Assembly: GCF_029227855.1 (NCBI RefSeq)
Contig: NZ_CP074356.1
Length of the DNA stretch: 64,000 bases
Source: Escherichia coli
GTDB lineage: Bacteria > Pseudomonadota > Gammaproteobacteria > Enterobacterales > Enterobacteriaceae
Direction: 5' to 3' (one strand)
In this document: positions 2,921-35,420 of the stretch, one piece after another
Layout of the letters: each line of letters opens with the position of its first letter
Position numbering within the stretch: position 1 is the stretch's first letter
Made by a program: the position numbers and the translations under genes
The notes under the pieces: generated by a model
Databases searched by the model: none
What the model saw: the letters and a program-made list of their open reading frames with translations, nothing else
What the model was told of the DNA's origin: nothing

Positions 2921-3835
2921 TTACTGCAGCAGGCTGGAAACCATGCTGGACATGCTGTTGGACTGTTTCAGCATGGTGATGCCGGTCTGCATCAGCACCT
3001 GTTGTTTGGTCATGTTGGACGCTTCCGTCGCGTAGTCGGTATCCATGATGTTACCGATAGCAACTTCGGTGTTGTCCTGCATGCTGGTCAGGTTATTAGC
3101 CGTGTCGTTCAGACGGTTGATAGACGCACCCAGTTTGGACTGGATCTGAGACACGTCATCCATCGCGGTAGAGATGCTGGTGATCATCTGGTTAGCCGAG
3201 CCAGACGCAGTCAGCTCAGTACCGCCAGAAACGCCTGCGGTGCCCGTGGTGTCAGCCTGATCCGCACTAAAGGAGCTGCTGATAGCAGAAAGATCAGTCA
3301 CCAGGGTATTCAGCTGGCTTGAAATATTCACGGTCATGGTGTCGGAAGATTCCGCGCCCACCTGGAAAGTTACCGCGCTCTGGAACAGACCGTCAGTACC
3401 GGTGTTGCTGGTGCCGGAAACACCGAACAGGTTGGTGCCGCCGTAAGTGGTGTTTTGCAGCATGTCAGACATCTGCTGGCCCAGTTCGTCGTATTCGTCC
3501 TGCATCGCCTGCAGGTCGTCGTCGCTGTAGGTGCCGTTCGCTGCCTGAGTTGACAGGTCTTTCATACGACCCAGCACGTCAGACATTTCGTCGAACATGC
3601 TGTCAGCGGTTTGCAGCATCGCGGTGGCATCATTGATGTTGCTCAGCGCCACCCCCATACCGCTGGACTGTGCTGTCAGACGGTTAGCAATTTGTTTGCC
3701 TGCGGCGTCATCGGCAGAAGAGTTAATCCGGTTACCTGTCGCCAGGCGTTCCATAGATGTAGACAGAGAAGAGCTGCTTTTGCTGATTGCATTAACGGCG
3801 GCCATTGAGGCGTTATTGGTGTTAATAGATAACAT
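2921..3835 (-). CDS. lafA: lateral-type flagellin (Flag-2 LafA), 304 aa
   Basis: ORF track; start placed at internal ATG giving MLSINTNNASMAAVNAI... (flagellin N-terminus) with AGGAG Shine-Dalgarno; ends ...SSLLQ; the longer track ORF (from 3901) is an upstream in-frame extension. Confidence 0.9.
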   Translation of the reverse strand: MLSINTNNASMAAVNAISKSSSSLSTSMERLATGNRINSSADDAAGKQIANRLTAQSSGMGVALSNINDATAMLQTADSMFDEMSDVLGRMKDLSTQAANGTYSDDDLQAMQDEYDELGQQMSDMLQNTTYGGTNLFGVSGTSNTGTDGLFQSAVTFQVGAESSDTMTVNISSQLNTLVTDLSAISSSFSADQADTTGTAGVSGGTELTASGSANQMITSISTAMDDVSQIQSKLGASINRLNDTANNLTSMQDNTEVAIGNIMDTDYATEASNMTKQQVLMQTGITMLKQSNSMSSMVSSLLQ

Positions 3836-4271
3836 GATACTGCTCCTTGGGATTAATCGTTTTCGTTTCGATACCCTGTAAAAACGACACCTCGGGAGCA
3901 AACTTAAAACCGCCGTTAAAATTTTTTCGCCACGTATTATCCGATGCCACTTTTAGCTAAAAAAAAACAGAGTTTAAATTCAGATAAAAAGATTATTAGC
4001 AATATCTGCCACATGGCCAGGTATCAAAATATGTCTTTATCAATTGCTTGATATAGTTAAGATTATCATCAATTACCGCGTTTTCTTATCAATGTACTGA
4101 TGCCAAAATTTACATTGCGTTGCAAATAGTACACATTTGGCTATTGTACCTGTCCTGTCATTTCGTTACATTTCCACGCTATATAGTGATTAAGAATAAT
4201 CTTATCACCATAAAATTATTAATTATCACGCAGAAAAATCATCTTCTCAGGGACGTATAAGACTGTGCTTT

Positions 4272-16646: not shown

Positions 16647-16773
16647 CGCGAATACCTTCCCCCATCGCGGAAATGGATTTTCCGCCTGATTCACAATCCT
16701 TTGTTTTTGATTATAAAAATTCCCGGCACGCTTATTGCACATTCCGCAAAGTAATAAAGACTGGAAGCCACCT

Positions 16774-17703
16774 ATGAGTTTTATTGAATGTTACGAACCG
16801 GAATACGTGCGCAATTTTATGACGCAATATCCCGATTCGCCTTTGTACATCCGCAAGGTGTGGAAAAACGAGATTCGCCAGAGCCTGATGCTGACAGAGC
16901 CAGAAAGCTGCGAAGCGGTGCTCAACGATGCCAGGGCCTTTGATTTACAGCTCACCTACCGCCCGGCGGAAGATAATGCCGCAGAACTCTCCGCGCGCGA
17001 TGCGATAGTAAACCAGGTCATTTTGAGCACCCTTACGCTCCCCGATTTACCCCCGGAGCTTTCACTGTACGCCGTCGGGATTTTGCTCTCCCGCGCCAGC
17101 AAAATGCCGGGCAGAGACGGAGATATTCTTGCCCGCTTGACGACGCTGCCACAGGCGCTGGCCGCTCATGCACAAAAAGGCACGCTACAGGCACAGTTCG
17201 CCCAGTTGCCGCCTGTACCACAGCTGGCGCGCCAACTGGTGACGCTGCTCGGCAGTTGTGCGTTTGACTGGTCGATTCTGCCGGAAAGCCCGCGCAAAAC
17301 TTCCCTGCCGTTGCAGATGCCTTTGCTGGCGCTACATGACGCCAACAGCGAAGCCCTGTTGCAACAGCAGCTTCAGGCACAGTGGCAAACCACCTGGCAA
17401 CAGCATTTTGCCACCGCGCCCTGGATGATGTGTAACTGGCTGATTTACCGCGTTTACCATGAGGTGATTGGACAGGCAGACGGAGCAGATTATTGCCCGC
17501 TGGTGTGCGATTTTTATTTTATCCGCACGTTAATCAGTTTATGGACGCTGGATGGTTCTCCGCTGCGGAAGGAGGATATTTTCGCCCTTTTTGCGGTGTT
17601 TGAACGCTGGCGAGAGAGTGAAAATGCGCTGTTTATTCGCCAGCAAATTCAGTCGTTATGTGCCGCCGACCCGCTGCTTTCAGCGTTTTCGCTGCTGACG
17701 TGA
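16774..17703 (+). CDS. hypothetical protein, about 309 aa, in the flgA-flgM-flgN operon context
   Basis: ORF track (16735-17703); start placed at the ATG at 16774 (MSFIECYEPEY...) with a GGAAG Shine-Dalgarno; I recognise no family. Confidence 0.5.
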   Translation: MSFIECYEPEYVRNFMTQYPDSPLYIRKVWKNEIRQSLMLTEPESCEAVLNDARAFDLQLTYRPAEDNAAELSARDAIVNQVILSTLTLPDLPPELSLYAVGILLSRASKMPGRDGDILARLTTLPQALAAHAQKGTLQAQFAQLPPVPQLARQLVTLLGSCAFDWSILPESPRKTSLPLQMPLLALHDANSEALLQQQLQAQWQTTWQQHFATAPWMMCNWLIYRVYHEVIGQADGADYCPLVCDFYFIRTLISLWTLDGSPLRKEDIFALFAVFERWRESENALFIRQQIQSLCAADPLLSAFSLLT

Positions 17704-17717
17704 AGCCGCTCTCGATC

Positions 17718-17753
17718 GGTCCCCTCGCCCCTTCGGGGAGAGGGTGAGGGGCA
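17718..17753. repeat. GC-rich imperfect palindromic intergenic repeat, copy A
   Basis: ggtcccctcgccccttcggggagagggtgaggggca; its reverse complement aligns closely with the copy at 27433-27474. Confidence 0.6.
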
Positions 17754-17809
17754 AAGCACGCACAGCCCTCCTTACCCATCAAATTAACCCCTTAACTCAC
17801 CTAAACACC

Positions 17810-20281
17810 ATGCCAACACCAACCCTCATCAAAACACTCGCCACTCACCGCGAAAAACCGTTCGTCAGCGTCGTCACGCCCACATGGAACCGTAGCGCAT
17901 TCCTGCCGTACCTGCTCTATATGTACCGCTATCAGGATTACCCGGCAGACCGCCGCGAACTGGTCATCCTCGACGACTCGCCGCAAAGCCATCAACACAT
18001 CATCGACCGCCTGACCAATGGCACACCGGAAGCCTTTAACATCCGCTATATTCATCACCCGGAAAAACTGCCACTGGGCAAAAAACGCAACATGCTCAAC
18101 GAACTGGCGAGCGGCGAATACATCCTCTGCATGGACGATGACGACTACTACCCGGCAGATAAAATCTCTTACGCCATCGCCATGATGCAAAAACACCGGG
18201 CGCTCATCTCCGGTTCCGACCAGATCCCCATCTGGTACAGCCACATCAATCGCATCTTCCAAAGCCGCAGCTTTGGCTCACATAACATCCTCAACGGCAC
18301 CTTTTGCTATCACCGTAACTACCTGAAAAAGCACCGTTACGACGATGATTGTAATTTAGGCGAAGAGAAAAGTTTCACCAACAATTTCAGCGTTAACCCG
18401 CTACAACTGCCCGGCGAGCGCACGATTCTGTGTATCTCGCACAGTCACAACACCTTTGATAAAGATTTTATTCTCGGGGCTAGCACGCCAGTAAACGCGG
18501 CGCTTACGGATATCGTCCGCGATCCGCTGCTGCGCAATGCTTATCTGAGTCTGCATAACGCCACTCATCACCAGGCGATCGATCAGGTCGTACTGATCAA
18601 TCTGGATAAACGCCCGGATCGCTTACAGCAGATCCGTGAAGAACTCACATTGCTGTATATTCCGCCTGAGAAGATCACCCGCCTTGCCGCCAGTGAAAAT
18701 GAAAACGGTCAACGGGGTCGCCGCCAGTCACACTTGCAGGCGCTGCGCCTGGCGCAACAGCACGGCTGGCAAAACTACCTGCTGCTGGAAGATGACGCAG
18801 TTATTCTCAAGCAGGAGAAACATATTCAGGTACTGAACACGCTGCTCGCGAGCCTGGCGAAAATTCCCTGGCAGGTGATGATCCTTGGCGGCGAAATTTC
18901 GCAGGGAACGATGCTAAAAAGTTTGCCGGGGCTGGTGCACGCGCGGGACTGCCGCAAAGTGTGCGCTTATCTGGTGAACAGTCGCTACTACCCGCAACTG
19001 GCGCAGCAGATGAGCCACAATGAACACTCGCTGGAAGACGGCTGGCAGCCGCTGCTACGCGCCGACAAATGGCTGGCCTGTTACCCGAGCCTTAGTTATC
19101 AGCGACCGGGCTTTAGTGATATCGAGAAAAAAGTGACCGACAACATTGCTCACTATTTCAATAAGTTACCCGTTATCACAAAGCCATCCGCATTACCCAT
19201 CGCCGACACCATCGGCTTTTTTATGGAAACCTCCTTCCACTACGCGCTCTACCGCCCAATCATCACTGCTCTACAGGTGCAGGGGCAGAGCTGCACGCTG
19301 GTGATCAATGACCGCGTGTTTAAACCGTTTCTTGATGAGATGCTGGAAACACTGAAAAACATCGACGATCCGCAGCTTAAAGGAATGCGCTTATCTGAAA
19401 TGCAGGCACACGGTCAGCGGGTGAAATGCCTGGTCAGCCCCTACCACACGCCCGCGCTCAATGGCCTGGCAGCGGTGAACGTTCGCGCCATGTACGGCTT
19501 AGCCAAAGAGACGTGGAACCACGCCGACTGGAACCGTTTTTATCAACGCATTTTGTGTTACAGCCACTACAGCCAGCGGGCGCTGGCGCATTTCGGCAAT
19601 GCAAAAGCAGTCGGCAACCCGCGCTTCGACGCCTGGCATAACGGCACGTTTGCCCGCACTCTGCCGGAAAATATTCAACCCGATTCCCGTAAACCTACGG
19701 TGCTCTATGCCCCCACGTTTGGCGCATTAAGCTCCCTGCCCCACTGGGCAGAAAAATTAGGCCGCTTAAGTGGCAATGTGAATCTGATTTGCAAACTGCA
19801 CCACGGCACCTGCTCGCGCCCGGAAGAAGCGGCATCGCTGGCCCTGGCGCGCAGGCATTTAAAACAGCGCACCGACTCCGCCCGCCACACGCTGGCGCTG
19901 CTGGCAAAGGCCGATTACGTGCTGACCGATAACAGCGGCTTTATTTTCGATGCTATTCACGTTGATAAGCGGGTGATCCTGCTCGACTTTCCGGGCATGG
20001 CAGCGTTGCTCGACGGTGAGAAAAGTTACTCCACGCCGGAGAGCGCCGATCAGCAAATCCGCGAAATATTGCCGGTGGCTCATGATATGGCAGAGTTGCG
20101 TTACTTGTTGTCAGAGGCGTTTGACTGGGGGGCGGTGCAGGCGCGGCTTACGAAGATTCGCCATCACTATTGCGATGCGTTTATGGATGGCAAAGCGGGA
20201 GAACGGGCGGCGATGGTGATTGTGGAGGCGCTGGCGGACAAGGAATCGTCAGGGATATGTCGATATAATTCGATTTTTTAA
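17810..20281 (+). CDS. multidomain glycosyltransferase, about 823 aa: N-terminal GT2-like, central GT25-like, C-terminal CDP-glycerol glycerophosphotransferase (TagB/TagF-like)
   Basis: ORF track (17744-20281); start set at ATG 17810 (MPTPTLIK...). N-terminus VSVVTPTWNRSAFLP...LDDSP...CMDDDDYY (DXD motif); middle VVLINLDKRPDRLQQI...LLLEDDAVI; C-terminus TVLYAPTFG...KLHHGT...VLTDNSGFIFDAIHVDKRVI. Domain calls by eye, unverified. Confidence 0.7.
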   Translation: MPTPTLIKTLATHREKPFVSVVTPTWNRSAFLPYLLYMYRYQDYPADRRELVILDDSPQSHQHIIDRLTNGTPEAFNIRYIHHPEKLPLGKKRNMLNELASGEYILCMDDDDYYPADKISYAIAMMQKHRALISGSDQIPIWYSHINRIFQSRSFGSHNILNGTFCYHRNYLKKHRYDDDCNLGEEKSFTNNFSVNPLQLPGERTILCISHSHNTFDKDFILGASTPVNAALTDIVRDPLLRNAYLSLHNATHHQAIDQVVLINLDKRPDRLQQIREELTLLYIPPEKITRLAASENENGQRGRRQSHLQALRLAQQHGWQNYLLLEDDAVILKQEKHIQVLNTLLASLAKIPWQVMILGGEISQGTMLKSLPGLVHARDCRKVCAYLVNSRYYPQLAQQMSHNEHSLEDGWQPLLRADKWLACYPSLSYQRPGFSDIEKKVTDNIAHYFNKLPVITKPSALPIADTIGFFMETSFHYALYRPIITALQVQGQSCTLVINDRVFKPFLDEMLETLKNIDDPQLKGMRLSEMQAHGQRVKCLVSPYHTPALNGLAAVNVRAMYGLAKETWNHADWNRFYQRILCYSHYSQRALAHFGNAKAVGNPRFDAWHNGTFARTLPENIQPDSRKPTVLYAPTFGALSSLPHWAEKLGRLSGNVNLICKLHHGTCSRPEEAASLALARRHLKQRTDSARHTLALLAKADYVLTDNSGFIFDAIHVDKRVILLDFPGMAALLDGEKSYSTPESADQQIREILPVAHDMAELRYLLSEAFDWGAVQARLTKIRHHYCDAFMDGKAGERAAMVIVEALADKESSGICRYNSIF

Positions 20282-20359
20282 ACATGTCGTTGGAATACGT
20301 TTATGCCATCGACATGTTTTAGGGATATGTCGAAAAAACGCGATTTTTTAAACATATTT
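20251..20359. other. structured intergenic element: two ~39-bp direct repeats bracketing a 10-bp-stem hairpin, between convergent glycosyltransferase and cytidylyltransferase genes
   Basis: Direct repeats agggatatgtcga...cgattttttaaacat at 20251-20289 and 20321-20359; inverted repeat aaacatgtcg (20280-20289) / cgacatgttt (20310-20319) with 20-nt loop. Confidence 0.6.
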
Positions 20360-29893: not shown

Positions 29894-30676
29894 ATGCGCA
29901 CAAGCGACGTTACGCAACTGATGGATCTGGCGCTGGGGCTGTGGTTTCCCTTCGTGCGCATTATGGCGTTTCTGCGCTATGTGCCGGTGCTGGATAACAG
30001 CGCCCTGACCGTGCGCGTGCGGATTATTTTGTCGCTGGCGCTGGCAATCATCATCACGCCGTTGATCCCCCATCCCATTCCCCACGATCTGCTTTCACTC
30101 AACAGCCTGATCCTGACGGTGGAGCAAATTTTATGGGGCATGTTGTTCGGGCTGATGTTTCAGTTTCTGTTTCTCGCGCTACAACTGGCCGGACAAATTC
30201 TCTCGTTCAATATGGGGATGAGCATGGCGGTGATGAACGACCCGAGCAGCGGCGCATCGACCACCGTGCTGGCGGAGTTAATCAACGTCTATGCGATCCT
30301 GCTGTTTTTTGCCATGGACGGGCATCTGCTGCTGGTAAGCGTGCTGTATAAGGGCTTCACCTACTGGCCGATTGGTAACGCGCTGCATCCGCAAACCCTG
30401 CGCACCATCGCGCTGGCCTTTAGCTGGGTGCTGGCGTCCGCATCACTGCTGGCGCTGCCGACCACCTTCATCATGCTGATTGTGCAGGGCTGCTTTGGCC
30501 TGCTCAACCGCATCGCGCCGCCGCTGAACCTCTTTTCGCTCGGCTTTCCCATCAACATGCTGGCGGGGCTGGTTTGCTTTGCCACCCTGCTCTACAACCT
30601 GCCGGATCACTATCTGCATCTGGCGAATTTTGTGTTGCAGCAACTCGACGCGCTGAAAGGTCACTATGGCGGATAG
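29894..30676 (+). CDS. lfiR: export apparatus protein FliR (Flag-2 LfiR)
   Basis: ORF track (29843-30676); start at ATG 29894 immediately after the fliQ stop; polytopic membrane protein. Confidence 0.85.
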   Translation: MRTSDVTQLMDLALGLWFPFVRIMAFLRYVPVLDNSALTVRVRIILSLALAIIITPLIPHPIPHDLLSLNSLILTVEQILWGMLFGLMFQFLFLALQLAGQILSFNMGMSMAVMNDPSSGASTTVLAELINVYAILLFFAMDGHLLLVSVLYKGFTYWPIGNALHPQTLRTIALAFSWVLASASLLALPTTFIMLIVQGCFGLLNRIAPPLNLFSLGFPINMLAGLVCFATLLYNLPDHYLHLANFVLQQLDALKGHYGG

Positions 30677-31805
30677 CAGCAGCGAAGAAAAAACAGAGAA
30701 ACCCTCGGCGCAAAAGCTGCGTAAAGCGCGTGAAGAGGGGCAACTGCCGCGCTCGAAGGATATGGGGCTGGCAGCGAGCCTGTTTGCAGCGTTTGTGGTG
30801 ATCTCCAGCAGTTTTCCGTGGTATGCCGATTTTGTGCGCGAGAGTTTTATCAGCGTGCATCAGTACGCGCAGGAGATTAATAACCCGCAGGTGATCGGTC
30901 AGTTTCTGCGCCACCACCTGTTAATTCTCGGCAAGTTTATCCTTACGTTGCTGCCGATGCCCGCCGCCGCGCTGCTCTCTTCGCTGGTGCCGGGCGGCTG
31001 GCTGTTTCTGCCGAAAAAAATCCTCCCGGATTTCAGCAAAATTAGCCCGTTAAAAGGCATTGGGCGTCTGTTTTCCAGTGAACATCTGGCGGAAACGGGA
31101 AAGATGACGGTGAAGTCTGCCGTGGTGCTGGTGATGCTGTGGGTAAGCCTGCGCAATAACTTTGCCGCCTTTCTCGGCCTGCAGGCGCTGCCGTTCAAAC
31201 TGGCGATGAATGACGGTTTGTCGCTCTACGCCAGCGTGATGCGCAACTTTGTCATCCTGTTTATTTTCTTTGCGCTTCTCGACGTGCCGCTGGCGAAAGC
31301 CCTGTTCACCAAAGGGCTGAAGATGACCAAACAAGAACTGAAAGAAGAGTACAAAAATCAGGAAGGCAAGCCGGAAGTGAAGGCGCGCGTGCGGCGGCTG
31401 CAACGGCAGCTGGCGATGGGGCAAATTCGCAAAGTGGTGCCAAAGGCCAACGTGGTGATCACCAACCCGACCCACTACGCCGTGGCGTTGCAGTATGACC
31501 AGTCGCGTGCCGCCGCGCCGTTTGTGGTGGCGAAAGGCACCGATGAAATCGCCCTCTATATTCGCCAGGTCGCTGCTGAAAGTCAGGTGGAAGTGGTCGA
31601 GTTCCCGCGGCTGGCGCGCTCGGTTTACTATACCACTCAGGTGAATCAGCAAATTCCTTTTCAGCTTTACCGGGCTATCGCCCACGTTCTGACCTACGTC
31701 CTGCAAATGAAACACTGGCGCGAGGGCGCACAGCCGCGCCCGGCCCTGAACAGACATATTTCCATTCCCAAAGAGGTGCTTAAACTGGATGGCGAAAACA
31801 ACTAA
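30666..31805 (+). CDS. lfhB: export apparatus protein FlhB (Flag-2 LfhB)
   Basis: ORF track, 379 aa; conserved NPTH autocleavage motif (…VVITNPTHYAVAL…). Confidence 0.9.
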   Translation: MADSSSEEKTEKPSAQKLRKAREEGQLPRSKDMGLAASLFAAFVVISSSFPWYADFVRESFISVHQYAQEINNPQVIGQFLRHHLLILGKFILTLLPMPAAALLSSLVPGGWLFLPKKILPDFSKISPLKGIGRLFSSEHLAETGKMTVKSAVVLVMLWVSLRNNFAAFLGLQALPFKLAMNDGLSLYASVMRNFVILFIFFALLDVPLAKALFTKGLKMTKQELKEEYKNQEGKPEVKARVRRLQRQLAMGQIRKVVPKANVVITNPTHYAVALQYDQSRAAAPFVVAKGTDEIALYIRQVAAESQVEVVEFPRLARSVYYTTQVNQQIPFQLYRAIAHVLTYVLQMKHWREGAQPRPALNRHISIPKEVLKLDGENN

Positions 31806-33882
31806 ATCGTTCCTCGCGCTGCTGCGCGGCGGCAATCTCGGCGTGCCGCTGGTCATTCTATGCATTCTGGCAATGGTTATTCTGCCGCTGCCGCCTGCGC
31901 TGCTGGATATTCTGTTCACCTTCAACATTGTGCTGGCGGTGATGGTGCTGCTGGTGGCGGTGTCAGCGAAAAGGCCGCTGGAATTCAGCCTGTTCCCGAC
32001 CATTTTGCTGATCACCACCTTAATGCGCCTGACGCTCAACGTTGCTTCTACGCGCGTGGTGTTGCTGCACGGGCATCTCGGCGCGGGCGCGGCGGGTAAG
32101 GTGATTGAGTCATTTGGTCAGGTGGTGATTGGCGGCAACTTTGTCGTCGGCTTCGTGGTGTTTATCATCCTGATGATCATCAACTTTATCGTCGTCACCA
32201 AAGGGGCCGAGCGTATTTCCGAGGTTTCTGCCCGCTTTACCTTAGACGCGATGCCTGGCAAACAGATGGCGATTGACGCCGATCTTAACGCCGGGTTGAT
32301 CAACCAGGCGCAGGCGCAAACCCGGCGCAAAGATGTTGCCAGCGAGGCCGATTTCTACGGCGCGATGGACGGGGCATCGAAGTTTGTGCGCGGGGATGCC
32401 ATCGCCGGGATGATGATTCTGGCGATCAACCTGATCGGCGGCGTCTGTATCGGGATCTTCAAATACAACCTGAGCGCCGACGCCGCCTTCCAGCAGTATG
32501 TACTGATGACCATCGGCGACGGGCTGGTGGCGCAGATCCCTTCTCTGCTGCTCTCCACCGCAGCGGCGATTATCGTCACCCGCGTCAGCGACAACGGCGA
32601 TATCGCCCATGATGTGCGCCACCAGCTGCTGGCAAGCCCGTCGGTGCTCTACACCGCCACCGGGATCATGTTTGTGCTGGCGGTTGTGCCGGGGATGCCG
32701 CATCTGCCGTTTTTGCTGTTCAGCGCCCTGCTTGGTTTTACCGGCTGGCGGATGAGCAAACGCCCGCAGGTGGCGGAGGCGGAAGAGAAAAGCCTCGAAA
32801 CACTGACCCGAACCATCACCGAAACCAGCGAGCAACAGGTCAGTTGGGAAACTATTCCGCTGATCGAGCCCATCAGCTTAAGCCTCGGCTACAAGCTGGT
32901 GGCGCTGGTGGACAAAGCACAGGGTAACCCGCTCACCCAGCGGATTCGCGGCGTGCGGCAGGTGATTTCTGACGGCAACGGCGTGCTGCTGCCGGAGATC
33001 CGCATTCGGGAAAACTTCCGCCTCAAGCCCAGCCAGTACGCCATTTTCATCAATGGCATTAAGGCTGATGAAGCGGATATTCCGGCGGATAAACTGATGG
33101 CCCTGCCCTCCAGCGAAACCTACGGCGAGATTGACGGCGTGCTGGGGAACGACCCGGCGTACGGGATGCCGGTGACCTGGATCCAGCCCGCGCAGAAAGC
33201 GAAGGCGCTGAATATGGGGTATCAGGTGATCGACAGCGCCAGCGTGATTGCCACCCATGTGAACAAGATTGTCCGCAGCTATATTCCTGATTTGTTTAAC
33301 TATGATGACATCACGCAGTTGCATAACCGTTTGTCGTCGATGGCACCGCGCCTGGCGGAAGATTTGAGCGCGGCGCTCAATTACAGCCAATTGCTGAAAG
33401 TGTACCGGGCGCTGCTGACCGAAGGCGTTTCCCTGCGCGATATTGTCACCATCGCCACCGTGCTGGTCGCCAGTAGTGCGGTGACCAAAGATCATATTCT
33501 GCTGGCGGCAGATGTGCGCCTGGCGCTGAGGCGCAGCATTACCCATCCGTTCGTTCGCAAGCAGGAGCTGACGGTGTATACGCTGAATAATGAGCTGGAA
33601 AATCTGCTGACCAACGTAGTGAATCAAGCGCAACAGGCCGGCAAAGTGATGCTCGACAGTGTGCCGGTGGACCCGAATATGCTTAACCAGTTCCAGAGCA
33701 CGATGCCGCAGGTAAAAGAGCAGATGAAAGCGGCGGGGAAAGACCCGGTGCTGCTGGTGCCGCCGCAACTGCATCCATTGCTGGCGCGCTATGCAAGGTT
33801 GTTTGCGCCGGGGCTGCATGTGCTGTCGTATAACGAAGTGCCGGATGAGCTGGAGTTGAAGATTATGGGGGCGCTGAGTTGA
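31789..33882 (+). CDS. lfhA: export apparatus protein FlhA (Flag-2 LfhA), full length
   Basis: ORF track, 697 aa; FlhA family N-terminal TM region and cytoplasmic domain. Confidence 0.9.
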   Translation: MAKTTKSFLALLRGGNLGVPLVILCILAMVILPLPPALLDILFTFNIVLAVMVLLVAVSAKRPLEFSLFPTILLITTLMRLTLNVASTRVVLLHGHLGAGAAGKVIESFGQVVIGGNFVVGFVVFIILMIINFIVVTKGAERISEVSARFTLDAMPGKQMAIDADLNAGLINQAQAQTRRKDVASEADFYGAMDGASKFVRGDAIAGMMILAINLIGGVCIGIFKYNLSADAAFQQYVLMTIGDGLVAQIPSLLLSTAAAIIVTRVSDNGDIAHDVRHQLLASPSVLYTATGIMFVLAVVPGMPHLPFLLFSALLGFTGWRMSKRPQVAEAEEKSLETLTRTITETSEQQVSWETIPLIEPISLSLGYKLVALVDKAQGNPLTQRIRGVRQVISDGNGVLLPEIRIRENFRLKPSQYAIFINGIKADEADIPADKLMALPSSETYGEIDGVLGNDPAYGMPVTWIQPAQKAKALNMGYQVIDSASVIATHVNKIVRSYIPDLFNYDDITQLHNRLSSMAPRLAEDLSAALNYSQLLKVYRALLTEGVSLRDIVTIATVLVASSAVTKDHILLAADVRLALRRSITHPFVRKQELTVYTLNNELENLLTNVVNQAQQAGKVMLDSVPVDPNMLNQFQSTMPQVKEQMKAAGKDPVLLVPPQLHPLLARYARLFAPGLHVLSYNEVPDELELKIMGALS

Positions 33883-33918
33883 TGCCTTTTAAGAAACACA
33901 ATACGATGACATCAATTT

Positions 33919-34314
33919 ATGACGTCAGGGATTGATAAGATGATGAAAACGCGTTTATTAATATCTCAAGCATCGAACATTATCACCATTAAAGGTCAAC
34001 CAGCCGCAGTGACATTTGAAGCCGATATCAACGCATTTCGCGGCAAATTTCTCAATGTAAATGGTTATTGCGACTTTGTAGCGACAAGCATTGAGGCGTT
34101 ATACCGGGAAGGTGAAAGTGCGCTGGATGAGTGGATGGCGGATTGTGAAGAGGACGGCATTGCCCCTTTTCGTGAAGAAGAGCAAAAACGCCTGACGCTT
34201 CGTGTTCCTCATCACATCGATTCACGACTGACCATTGTCGCCAGACAACATTCCATTTCAAAAAATCAGCTCATTGTTGATGTATTAGAACGTGAGTTTT
34301 CATCCCAGATGTAA
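33919..34314 (+). CDS. HicB-like/ribbon-helix-helix small protein (orphan antitoxin-like), 131 aa
   Basis: ORF track; C-terminal ...RLTLRVPHHIDSRLTIVARQHSISKNQLIVDVLERE resembles RHH (CopG/Arc) DNA-binding motifs fused to a HicB-like fold; no HicA-like partner seen nearby. Confidence 0.45.
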   Translation: MTSGIDKMMKTRLLISQASNIITIKGQPAAVTFEADINAFRGKFLNVNGYCDFVATSIEALYREGESALDEWMADCEEDGIAPFREEEQKRLTLRVPHHIDSRLTIVARQHSISKNQLIVDVLEREFSSQM

Positions 34315-34319
34315 ACAGG

Positions 34320-34348
34320 TCGGATGCCGTGTGGCATCCGATTTTTTT
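34320..34348 (+). terminator. Rho-independent terminator
   Basis: Hairpin tcggatgcc-gtgt-ggcatccga followed by ttttttt directly after the 131-aa ORF stop. Confidence 0.8.
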
Positions 34349-34370
34349 CCTGATCGTCAGTATTCTCCGT

Positions 34371-35129
34371 TTACAAAATCGTCTCTTCCGTCAAAATCCT
34401 GCGCGCGCCTAAAAAATGATCCTGCCAGAAAGGCTCAGCTAACCGACTTACCCGAATGGTTTCCCCCGTGCGCGGCGACTCGATAAACTGACCGTCTCCC
34501 AGATACACGCCCATATGATCGGCTATCTCGCGGCTGTGGATATGGAAAAACAGCAAATCTCCCCGGCGCAGGTCGTTGTTCGCCACAATCGTTGCCCGAT
34601 GGTAGTGATACATCTCATTAGCCGTACGCGGGAGCTTCGCCTCGAGGATCTTGTTGTAGGCATAAAAAACCAACCCGCTACAGTCGAAGCCTTGATCAGG
34701 CCGCGTGCCGCCCCAGACGTAAGGTTTGCCAAGCTGCTGCTCCAGGCGGTGAATCGCCACTTCGGTGATGTTGTGTAGATGGTCGCTGCTTAAGAAATGG
34801 TTGTTCTCCGCCAGCGCCTGCCAGCGTCTGTCACTCGCCTTGAGCGGCGCAGGAAACCATTCTGGATGCTGTTTTATCTGTTCGCGGTTGTGCTGGCGCA
34901 GCGCCTTTCTGCTTTCGGCATTGCCTTCCACAATGTAGCTGGCCTGCTTTTTCAGATGGGTTTGGTACTGTTTTAATAAACGCGCCCGGTTTTGCATCCG
35001 CTGGCGGGCGGCGTAGCTGAAAGAGATATGTGATGTGGTGGCGCTGGCGAGTAAAGGGAGCAAAACGCATAACGAAAACACGCCTGGATGCAGAAATCTG
35101 CCGTGAAAGAACGAAGACATGAAGGACAT
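34371..35129 (-). CDS. yafL: NlpC/P60-family peptidase YafL
   Basis: ORF track, 252 aa; signal peptide; NlpC/P60 catalytic region with Cys motif ...GFDCSGLVFYAY... Confidence 0.8.
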   Translation of the reverse strand: MSFMSSFFHGRFLHPGVFSLCVLLPLLASATTSHISFSYAARQRMQNRARLLKQYQTHLKKQASYIVEGNAESRKALRQHNREQIKQHPEWFPAPLKASDRRWQALAENNHFLSSDHLHNITEVAIHRLEQQLGKPYVWGGTRPDQGFDCSGLVFYAYNKILEAKLPRTANEMYHYHRATIVANNDLRRGDLLFFHIHSREIADHMGVYLGDGQFIESPRTGETIRVSRLAEPFWQDHFLGARRILTEETIL

Positions 35130-35420
35130 AAACTAGCTGAATGAAGGAGAGAATTTTAAAAGGTTGGGGGAGTAAACGGGATTATTAATTGCTTATTTGC
35201 ATATTAGTTACGAGGTTTCATAATCTTAGGAAATAAGTGATACATGCGCTTTTCGGACTAATGAAAACTGCCCCTGTGCTAAATTTGTAAACCCTGCGCC
35301 GACAGGCTTGCGTAAAACTCTTTTGGTGATAATGTGAGCCTTCCAAATCCAGACTATTCCGATTTGGGATCCATTTTGCCGTCCTGGCGTGTGTAACCGT
35401 TTTATCAAGGAATAAGCAGT

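Follow-up and report, generated by a model that had tools for sequence, protein, structure and literature searches.

In solved HicAB complexes, the N-terminal domain of the antitoxin HicB is the part that binds the toxin HicA. The hicAB3 module of Yersinia pestis has one promoter, which lies upstream of hicA and is flanked by two operators, and HicB3 alone is able to bind and repress (PMC11594946). Orphan antitoxins, found without a toxin, are abundant, with a median of nine per Klebsiella pneumoniae strain, and decay, anti-addiction and regulatory re-use have been proposed as their fates (PMC7192599). The gene described here lies within 64,000 nt of Escherichia coli DNA (the window, meaning the whole stretch that was analysed), which spans the Flag-2 (lateral flagella) locus together with the sequence to its right. 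This gene is very probably an orphan HicB antitoxin, left behind after the deletion of hicA from a type II hicAB module that, in a portion of E. coli strains, has long been resident in the gap between lfhA and yafL.

The window is 99.9% identical to E. coli strain JNEC-KY178, the closest complete genome, with only 2 mismatches and 3 gaps over 34.6 kb. The window has lfhB as an uninterrupted ORF of 379 aa, whereas the JNEC-KY178 annotation gives the gene as frameshifted. Between flgN and the fliJ cluster, at about 16760-20282, the flagellar locus carries a lysine-N-methylase and a large glycosyltransferase, cargo that corresponds to the variable region VR1 described for Flag-2 loci (PMC6993521). 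At the right-hand end of the locus, the first-pass annotation had reported a 131-aa ORF on the + strand, beginning with ATG and placed between flhA and yafL. Both the ORF and its placement are as described, the flanking genes being lfhA on the + strand and yafL on the - strand (Table 1). The ORF is separated from its neighbours by 36 nt on the lfhA side and 56 nt on the yafL side, and the gene order after lfhA is the hicB remnant, yafL in convergent orientation, dpaA/yafK, yafJ and gmhA. On the far side of yafL, the dinJ-yafQ pair present in K-12, E. coli C and E2865 is missing from the yafL-dpaA gap (35130-35420). No remnant of dinJ-yafQ was found by BLAST in this interval, of which only the 170 nt beside dpaA align to K-12. 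In this way, yafL is flanked on both sides by toxin-antitoxin (TA) presence/absence polymorphisms, which vary independently.

Table 1. Features of the lfhA-yafL junction and its neighbours, in window coordinates
Feature	Position	Strand	Description
lfhB	30666-31805		With lfhA, the last genes of the flagellar cluster
lfhA (Flag-2 flhA paralogue)	31789-33882	+	Upstream neighbour; stop TGA 33880-33882
Residual promoter candidate	33879-33907	+	TTGATG 33879-33884 (overlaps lfhA stop), 17-nt spacer, TACGAT 33902-33907
Proximal operator-like element	33907-33927	+	TGACATCA-N5-TGACGTCA, quasi-palindrome
ORF as first reported	33919-34314	+	131 aa, ATG start
Shine-Dalgarno-like AGGGA (33927-33931) and ATG (33940)	33927-33942	+	ATG is the hicA start codon in intact modules
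Likely CDS	33940-34314	+	124 aa, from the former hicA ATG
Deletion junction	33945-33967	+	About 23 nt, alignable to neither hicA nor hicB
HicB N-terminal domain	33976-34155	+	Residues 20-79 (131-aa numbering); four strands and a long helix
C-terminal ribbon-helix-helix domain	34186-34305	+	Residues about 90-129; predicted DNA-binding
Intrinsic terminator	34317-34351	+	12-bp stem, 4-nt loop, run of seven T
yafL (C40/NlpC-P60 peptidase)	34371-35129	-	Convergent downstream neighbour; its stop is the right limit of the polymorphic segment

The C-terminal ribbon-helix-helix (RHH) or HicB-like segment proposed in the first-pass annotation was recovered by both profile and fold searches. Residues 74-123 match the Pfam HicB family (PF05534) with an E-value of 1.6e-10 and a score of 41.1 bits, against a curated cut-off of 21 bits. 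An AlphaFold2 model built from 23 relatives (mean pLDDT 79) predicts residues 1-18 of the 131-aa form to be disordered. These are followed by an N-terminal domain of four strands (21-24, 27-34, 39-44 and 52-55) and a long helix (58-79), modelled with a pLDDT of about 88-95, and by a C-terminal part in which an LTLRV strand segment precedes helices 98-110 and 115-129. When compared with the PDB using Foldseek, the top matches of the model were Burkholderia pseudomallei HicB (6g26, probability 1.00), 4p7d (Y. pestis HicB3), 6u0i (an E. coli HicB3 entry), 6g1c and TTHA0281, the E-values for the HicB chains being modest (0.015) and the query a predicted structure. The C-terminal ~40 residues matched CopG, Arc, KacA and AtaR at 1.0-1.9 Å, and superposition of the C-terminal helices gave 1.3 Å for CopG and 1.5-1.9 Å for Arc. 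One relative also matches Pfam Arc. At every one of the 3 invariant and 39 nearly invariant columns of the family, the window sequence agrees with the consensus. Both the RHH and the HicB fold are present according to Pfam, AlphaFold2 and Foldseek, and profile, fold and orthology alike assign the gene to the HicB family. A stand-alone RHH repressor of the Arc/MetJ/CopG type was ruled out, given that the RHH is preceded by the HicB N-terminal domain and that the orthologues are paired with HicA.

No close relative of known structure came up when the PDB was searched by sequence with the protein (phmmer) and the family profile, and the sole match of the profile was a weak, generic one to the RHH of AmrZ (E = 0.015). 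The search of NCBIfam with the protein returned only sub-threshold noise, and the PADLOC defence models gave no meaningful match for HicB or for its cognate HicA.

No HicA partner had been apparent at first inspection, and this was upheld by examination of the flanking ORFs and by tblastn across the whole window. No HicA-like ORF of at least 30 aa was found on either strand to either side of the gene, and the best match of four HicA proteins to the 64 kb had an E-value of 0.065 over 18 residues. The arrangement that characterizes a complete hicAB module, with hicA directly upstream of and overlapping hicB, does not occur in the window, where the gene is separated from lfhA by only 36-57 nt. 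Because the defining toxin gene was looked for and is absent, the locus in the window is an orphan antitoxin and not a TA system.

Comparison with other strains at the same junction revealed where the toxin had been. In K-12, REP-rayT-REP fills exactly the interval from the lfhA stop to the yafL stop, so that rayT, which the first-pass annotation had expected at this position, is indeed located in the same gap together with its REP elements. Other E. coli possess an intact hicA (92 aa) and hicB (118 aa) pair in this gap (loci L015-L020), both where Flag-2 is present (E2865, L015) and where it is deleted (O145:H28), which directly supports the earlier suggestion of a decayed toxin-antitoxin module. 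When aligned with these intact alleles, the window is missing about 300 nt in two blocks. The first block, of about 45 nt after the lfhA stop, corresponds to the distal operator-like pair and the -35 box, and the second to about 260 nt of hicA, from codon 3 to its end. The stretch of about 50 nt kept between them contains the -10 hexamer TACGAT, the proximal operator-like element, AGGGA and the hicA start ATGAT. Alignment to hicB resumes at codon 3, with the hicA ATG at 33940 in frame. The native Shine-Dalgarno of hicB, formerly inside hicA, is gone and its native ATG is now ATA. An origin by loss of hicA from an intact pair is demonstrated by this alignment, at the level of sequence.

The filler of about 23 nt at the deletion junction was searched for in hicA, hicB and nearby sequence, where no shared word was longer than 10 nt and matches fell at unrelated positions. 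Given that no source of the filler could be traced, the deletion was either not a simple one-step event or was derived from an unsampled allele.

The HicA partners of this family, among them the cognate HicA at 3730-4008 of locus L015, which is absent from the window, are 91-92 aa long with an N-terminal extension of about 28 residues. These partners read G-S-R-R/V at the presumed catalytic-histidine position, at which K-12 HicA presumably reads GSNH. On a Leclercia metagenome contig (L005, 4730-4870), the called hicA is only 46 aa long and higB next to it is likewise shortened, representing either independent toxin decay or assembly errors.

The 131-aa ORF is real, but the start first reported for it is doubtful and that at 33940, giving 124 aa, is more probable. 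The ATG at 33919 sits within an operator-like box, ATGACGTCA, and is not preceded by a Shine-Dalgarno. The spacing between the ATG at 33940 and the conserved boxes equals that of the hicA start codon in E. coli, Leclercia and Erwinia. Since this spacing is kept and AGGGA precedes it, translation of the orphan gene most probably begins at ATG 33940, and the likely product is a 124-aa protein in which MMKTRLLISQ is joined to ASNIITIKG.... The corresponding RefSeq entry (WP_097420904.1) already bears the name 'type II toxin-antitoxin system HicB family antitoxin' and is given as 117 aa with its start at the ATA codon 33961-33963, the place of the former hicB ATG. This start was evidently chosen by homology and is probably a homology-driven misannotation common to about 100 genomes.

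The intact module (L015) contains a promoter-like site of the form TTGACG-17-TACGAT. The -10 hexamer in the window is that of the intact site, the original -35 having been deleted, and a TTGATG has been brought by the deletion to 17 nt from the retained -10. The residual promoter candidate so formed agrees with 8 of 12 consensus positions, below the threshold of the promoter scan, by which it went unreported, and it is weaker than the intact promoter as judged by consensus. No terminator was found by the scan between lfhA and the hicB remnant, so read-through transcription from the lfhBA operon would also be possible.

Upstream of the intact hicA, two 21-nt direct repeats each comprise a pair of 8-bp boxes, TGACNTCA, whose centres are 13 bp apart. 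These boxes were located at 3657-3717 of L015 and also upstream of hicA in L004, L008 and L011. Comparable pairs upstream of hicA are found in Leclercia (TGACGTCA), another enterobacterium and Erwinia (TGACTTCA). The positions of the TGACNTCA box pairs were counted to the end of a region reaching 5 nt beyond the first base of the hicA start codon. They are at 39 and 26 nt in the window allele, in Leclercia and in intact E. coli hicAB, the first box of the intact E. coli pair being the degenerate TGACACCA. The Erwinia pair lies at 38/25 nt, and L011 keeps the distal pair only. In every case, 25-26 nt separate the last box from the start reference point, and the TGACNTCA-N5-TGACNTCA pattern recurs in four lineages, so that the box pairs resemble the phylogenetic footprint that an RHH operator typically leaves. 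All boxes in Erwinia read TGACTTCA, suggesting that operator and repressor have co-varied.

Taken together, these elements suggest how the orphan gene may operate. Transcription would arise from the residual promoter, from lfhBA read-through or from both, and the captured hicA start would allow translation of the 124-aa product. HicB is predicted to dimerize via its RHH, bind the upstream TGACNTCA boxes and repress its own synthesis, by analogy with the autorepression of Y. pestis HicB3. The N-terminal domain should still neutralize a cognate HicA, given its 98% identity to that of the paired E. coli HicB, with no toxin encoded in cis. From these features we infer a competent RHH autorepressor and HicA binder.

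The strong intrinsic terminator noted after the ORF at first pass was corroborated, as the hairpin at 34317-34344 forms 12 pairs with a dG of about -19 kcal/mol (z = -5 versus shuffles) and is followed by seven U. All alleles retain the hairpin; outside the window allele the T run is eroded, and only the window version passes the terminator scan. Between 34330 and 34369, within the terminator and beyond it, the window carries nine substitutions in 40 nt relative to two other orphan alleles and eight relative to each intact-pair allele. Those at 34342-34343 extend the T run from 4 to 7, with a further T at 34348.

The position of the gene directly after lfhA, with no terminator between, could indicate a stand-alone RHH regulator of the Flag-2 locus that was placed at the boundary for that reason, and AmrZ, to which the family profile has its best sequence match in the PDB (E = 0.015), is an alginate and motility regulator. 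The AmrZ match, however, is one of generic RHH similarity, and no further copy of the operator-like motif was found in the 64 kb, all Flag-2 promoters included. Furthermore, the orphan and the intact pair both occur in strains from which Flag-2 is deleted, relatives in other genera are not beside flagellar genes, and the comparative Flag-2 literature examined makes no mention of such a gene. A Flag-2 regulator is therefore scarcely credible, and a role tied to the flagellar locus was not borne out, given the presence of the orphan in Flag-2-deleted strains and of its relatives in unrelated contexts. No link of the orphan hicB to Flag-2 function is visible.

To place the orphan allele within the species, the gap was surveyed in 5426 complete E. 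coli genomes. The K-12 arrangement with rayT is present in 3559, an intact hicA in 1370 (about a quarter), at one place per genome, and the orphan deletion junction of the window in 108 (2%). The window's segment is matched by 1477 genomes, nearly the sum of 1370 and 108, so that the orphan genomes hide no near-identical hicA elsewhere. The junction is common to the laboratory strain E. coli C, to strain 7/2, to many clinical isolates from humans and to the lineage of the window. Since its carriers vary in the presence or absence of Flag-2, and also of the neighbouring dinJ-yafQ, it looks like a single old deletion that was spread by descent and recombination. Matches of hicAB to E. coli 'plasmid' records were set aside; these records are 0.4-4.9 Mb in size and from this were inferred to be chromosomal.

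Outside E. coli, the relatives of this HicB constitute a narrow enterobacterial family of 114-120 aa. In Leclercia, Erwinia and another enterobacterium, they are preceded by an overlapping 91-92-aa HicA, above the Pfam cut-off, in contexts unrelated to flagella. The pair is also carried on Salmonella plasmids, and the same hicAB family is found on Salmonella, Klebsiella and Yersinia plasmids with a HicB identity of 44-57%. No paper was found that describes HicB or hicAB at this Flag-2/yafL/lfhA/rayT locus.

Three diverged orphan alleles have the same junction and a frame that is open from 33940. Between orphan alleles there are 6-11 synonymous and 1-4 non-synonymous changes, and between orphan and paired hicB 13-20 synonymous and 1-5 non-synonymous changes, with pairwise dN/dS of 0.02-0.12. 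The predominance of synonymous change, together with the kept consensus columns, argues against free decay. The site pattern at the locus is that of a recombination mosaic. Nucleotide divergence between E. coli strains is about 3-10% for lfhB, lfhA, hicB and yafL and 0-4% for the adjacent dpaA and yafJ (loci L015, L019, L020, L021 and L002), which suggests old divergent haplotypes or introgression at the right end of Flag-2. Taken as a whole, the region from lfhB to yafL has a haplotype divergence of 5-10%, compared with 1-2% for dpaA and yafJ. Synonymous differences among the orphans may in part have been imported from paired alleles. The mosaic thereby weakens the argument for selection, as differences imported in this way would not have accumulated after the loss of hicA. 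Dating of the deletion by dS was dropped on account of the recombination mosaic and the regional haplotype divergence.

These data bear on whether the gene is an inert relic, recently orphaned, not usefully expressed and intact only for want of time. Such a relic would not be expected to retain an open frame in three alleles, with 6-11 synonymous versus 1-4 non-synonymous changes, nor to agree with the family consensus in each of the 3 invariant and 39 nearly invariant columns, nor to be found in backgrounds as diverse as E. coli C and human clinical isolates, with and without Flag-2. It would be consistent with carriage by only 108 of the 5426 genomes (2%) and with the loss of the native start codon, the Shine-Dalgarno, the -35 box and one operator, and the synonymous variation may partly come from recombination. 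Orphan antitoxins are also common debris of decaying TA loci (PMC7192599). An inert relic is thus a possible, if rather unlikely, description of the gene.

Action in trans was also considered, in which the orphan HicB neutralizes HicA from elsewhere in the genome, from plasmids or from prophages. Targets for such anti-addiction could be provided by the almost identical hicAB allele of this chromosomal site, which segregates in 25% of E. coli, or by the members of the family on Salmonella, Klebsiella and Yersinia plasmids (44-57% HicB identity), and anti-addiction has been proposed for orphan antitoxins (PMC7192599). However, E. coli genomes contain no second near-identical hicA and the window contains none, identity to the plasmid-borne relatives reaches only about 55-63%, and specificity is the usual rule for TA pairs. 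Neutralization in trans is for these reasons distinctly doubtful. The related proposal, that the orphan HicB has been kept by selection as an immunity (anti-addiction) factor, expressed and autoregulated through the ribosome-binding site and start of the toxin, is regarded as doubtful. If true, the host would be shielded from the same-locus hicAB allele or from the plasmid relatives, which could not become addictive, and the gap would represent a long-lived three-way polymorphism (hicAB, hicB alone or rayT) kept by conflict and not by drift.

An orphan antitoxin that remains after deletion of its toxin gene is a real but ordinary finding: it is the leftover of a TA module, and the gene is already correctly named in RefSeq. 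Since orphan antitoxins are common, its wider biological significance is small. The analysis removes the suspicion of a hidden regulator at the edge of Flag-2, and provides a case of TA decay at nucleotide level, in which the toxin was lost first and the antitoxin probably survives on the translation start of the toxin. It also flags a probable error of RefSeq annotation, an ATA start where the native ATG was destroyed. The three-state lfhA-yafL gap, the capture of the toxin start by the antitoxin and the questionable RefSeq ATA start are mildly new.

Among known systems, REP-rayT-REP of K-12 occupies the same interval with unrelated content, an IS200/IS605-like tyrosine transposase and REP hairpins. 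The K-12 rayT segment has no counterpart in the window, and only its lfhA and yafL ends align. The HicAB system of K-12 (hicA/yncN-hicB/ydcQ) has the same family name and the same toxin-first order. We take its HicB to contain a helix-turn-helix rather than an RHH, its HicA to be 58 aa and its locus to lie elsewhere, and a K-12 HicA query had no match in the window by tblastn. HicAB of B. pseudomallei (PDB 6g26, 6g1n and 6g1c) provides the best fold match, with a full-length probability of 1.00 and the same RHH-type HicB architecture, and its N-terminal domain alone superposes on the window model at 2.7 Å over 63 columns. Identity between the two is nevertheless about 10%, and the full-length TM-score is only 0.4, because the orientation of the domains differs or is not fixed in the monomer model. 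HicAB3 of Y. pestis (HicB3, PDB 4p7d/4p78) resembles the window protein in its N-terminal domain and C-terminal RHH. In contrast, phmmer and the family profile detected no similarity between HicB3 and the window protein, the operator sequence differs, and the partner toxin of the window's family, absent from the window itself, is longer (91-92 aa) than that of HicAB3.

The orphan antitoxins surveyed in K. pneumoniae (PMC7192599) are, like the gene in the window, toxin-less antitoxins in the same context as valid pairs. The window differs from them in that the deletion is resolved to the nucleotide and that the antitoxin took over the ribosome-binding site and start codon of the toxin, a capture for which no description was found in the orphan-antitoxin literature examined. 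The intact E. coli hicAB, as in E2865 (WP_000598760.1, HicA; WP_001030484.1, HicB), has the same site, flanks and terminator hairpin as the window and shares with it the proximal operator-like boxes, the -10 hexamer and the hicA start codon. Relative to this pair, the window is without hicA, the distal operator, the -35 box and hicB's own start. The HicB of the E2865 type and that of the window differ by one or two substitutions in 115 aligned codons and a one-residue indel in a comparison of three alleles, and the window product begins with about 10 foreign N-terminal residues.
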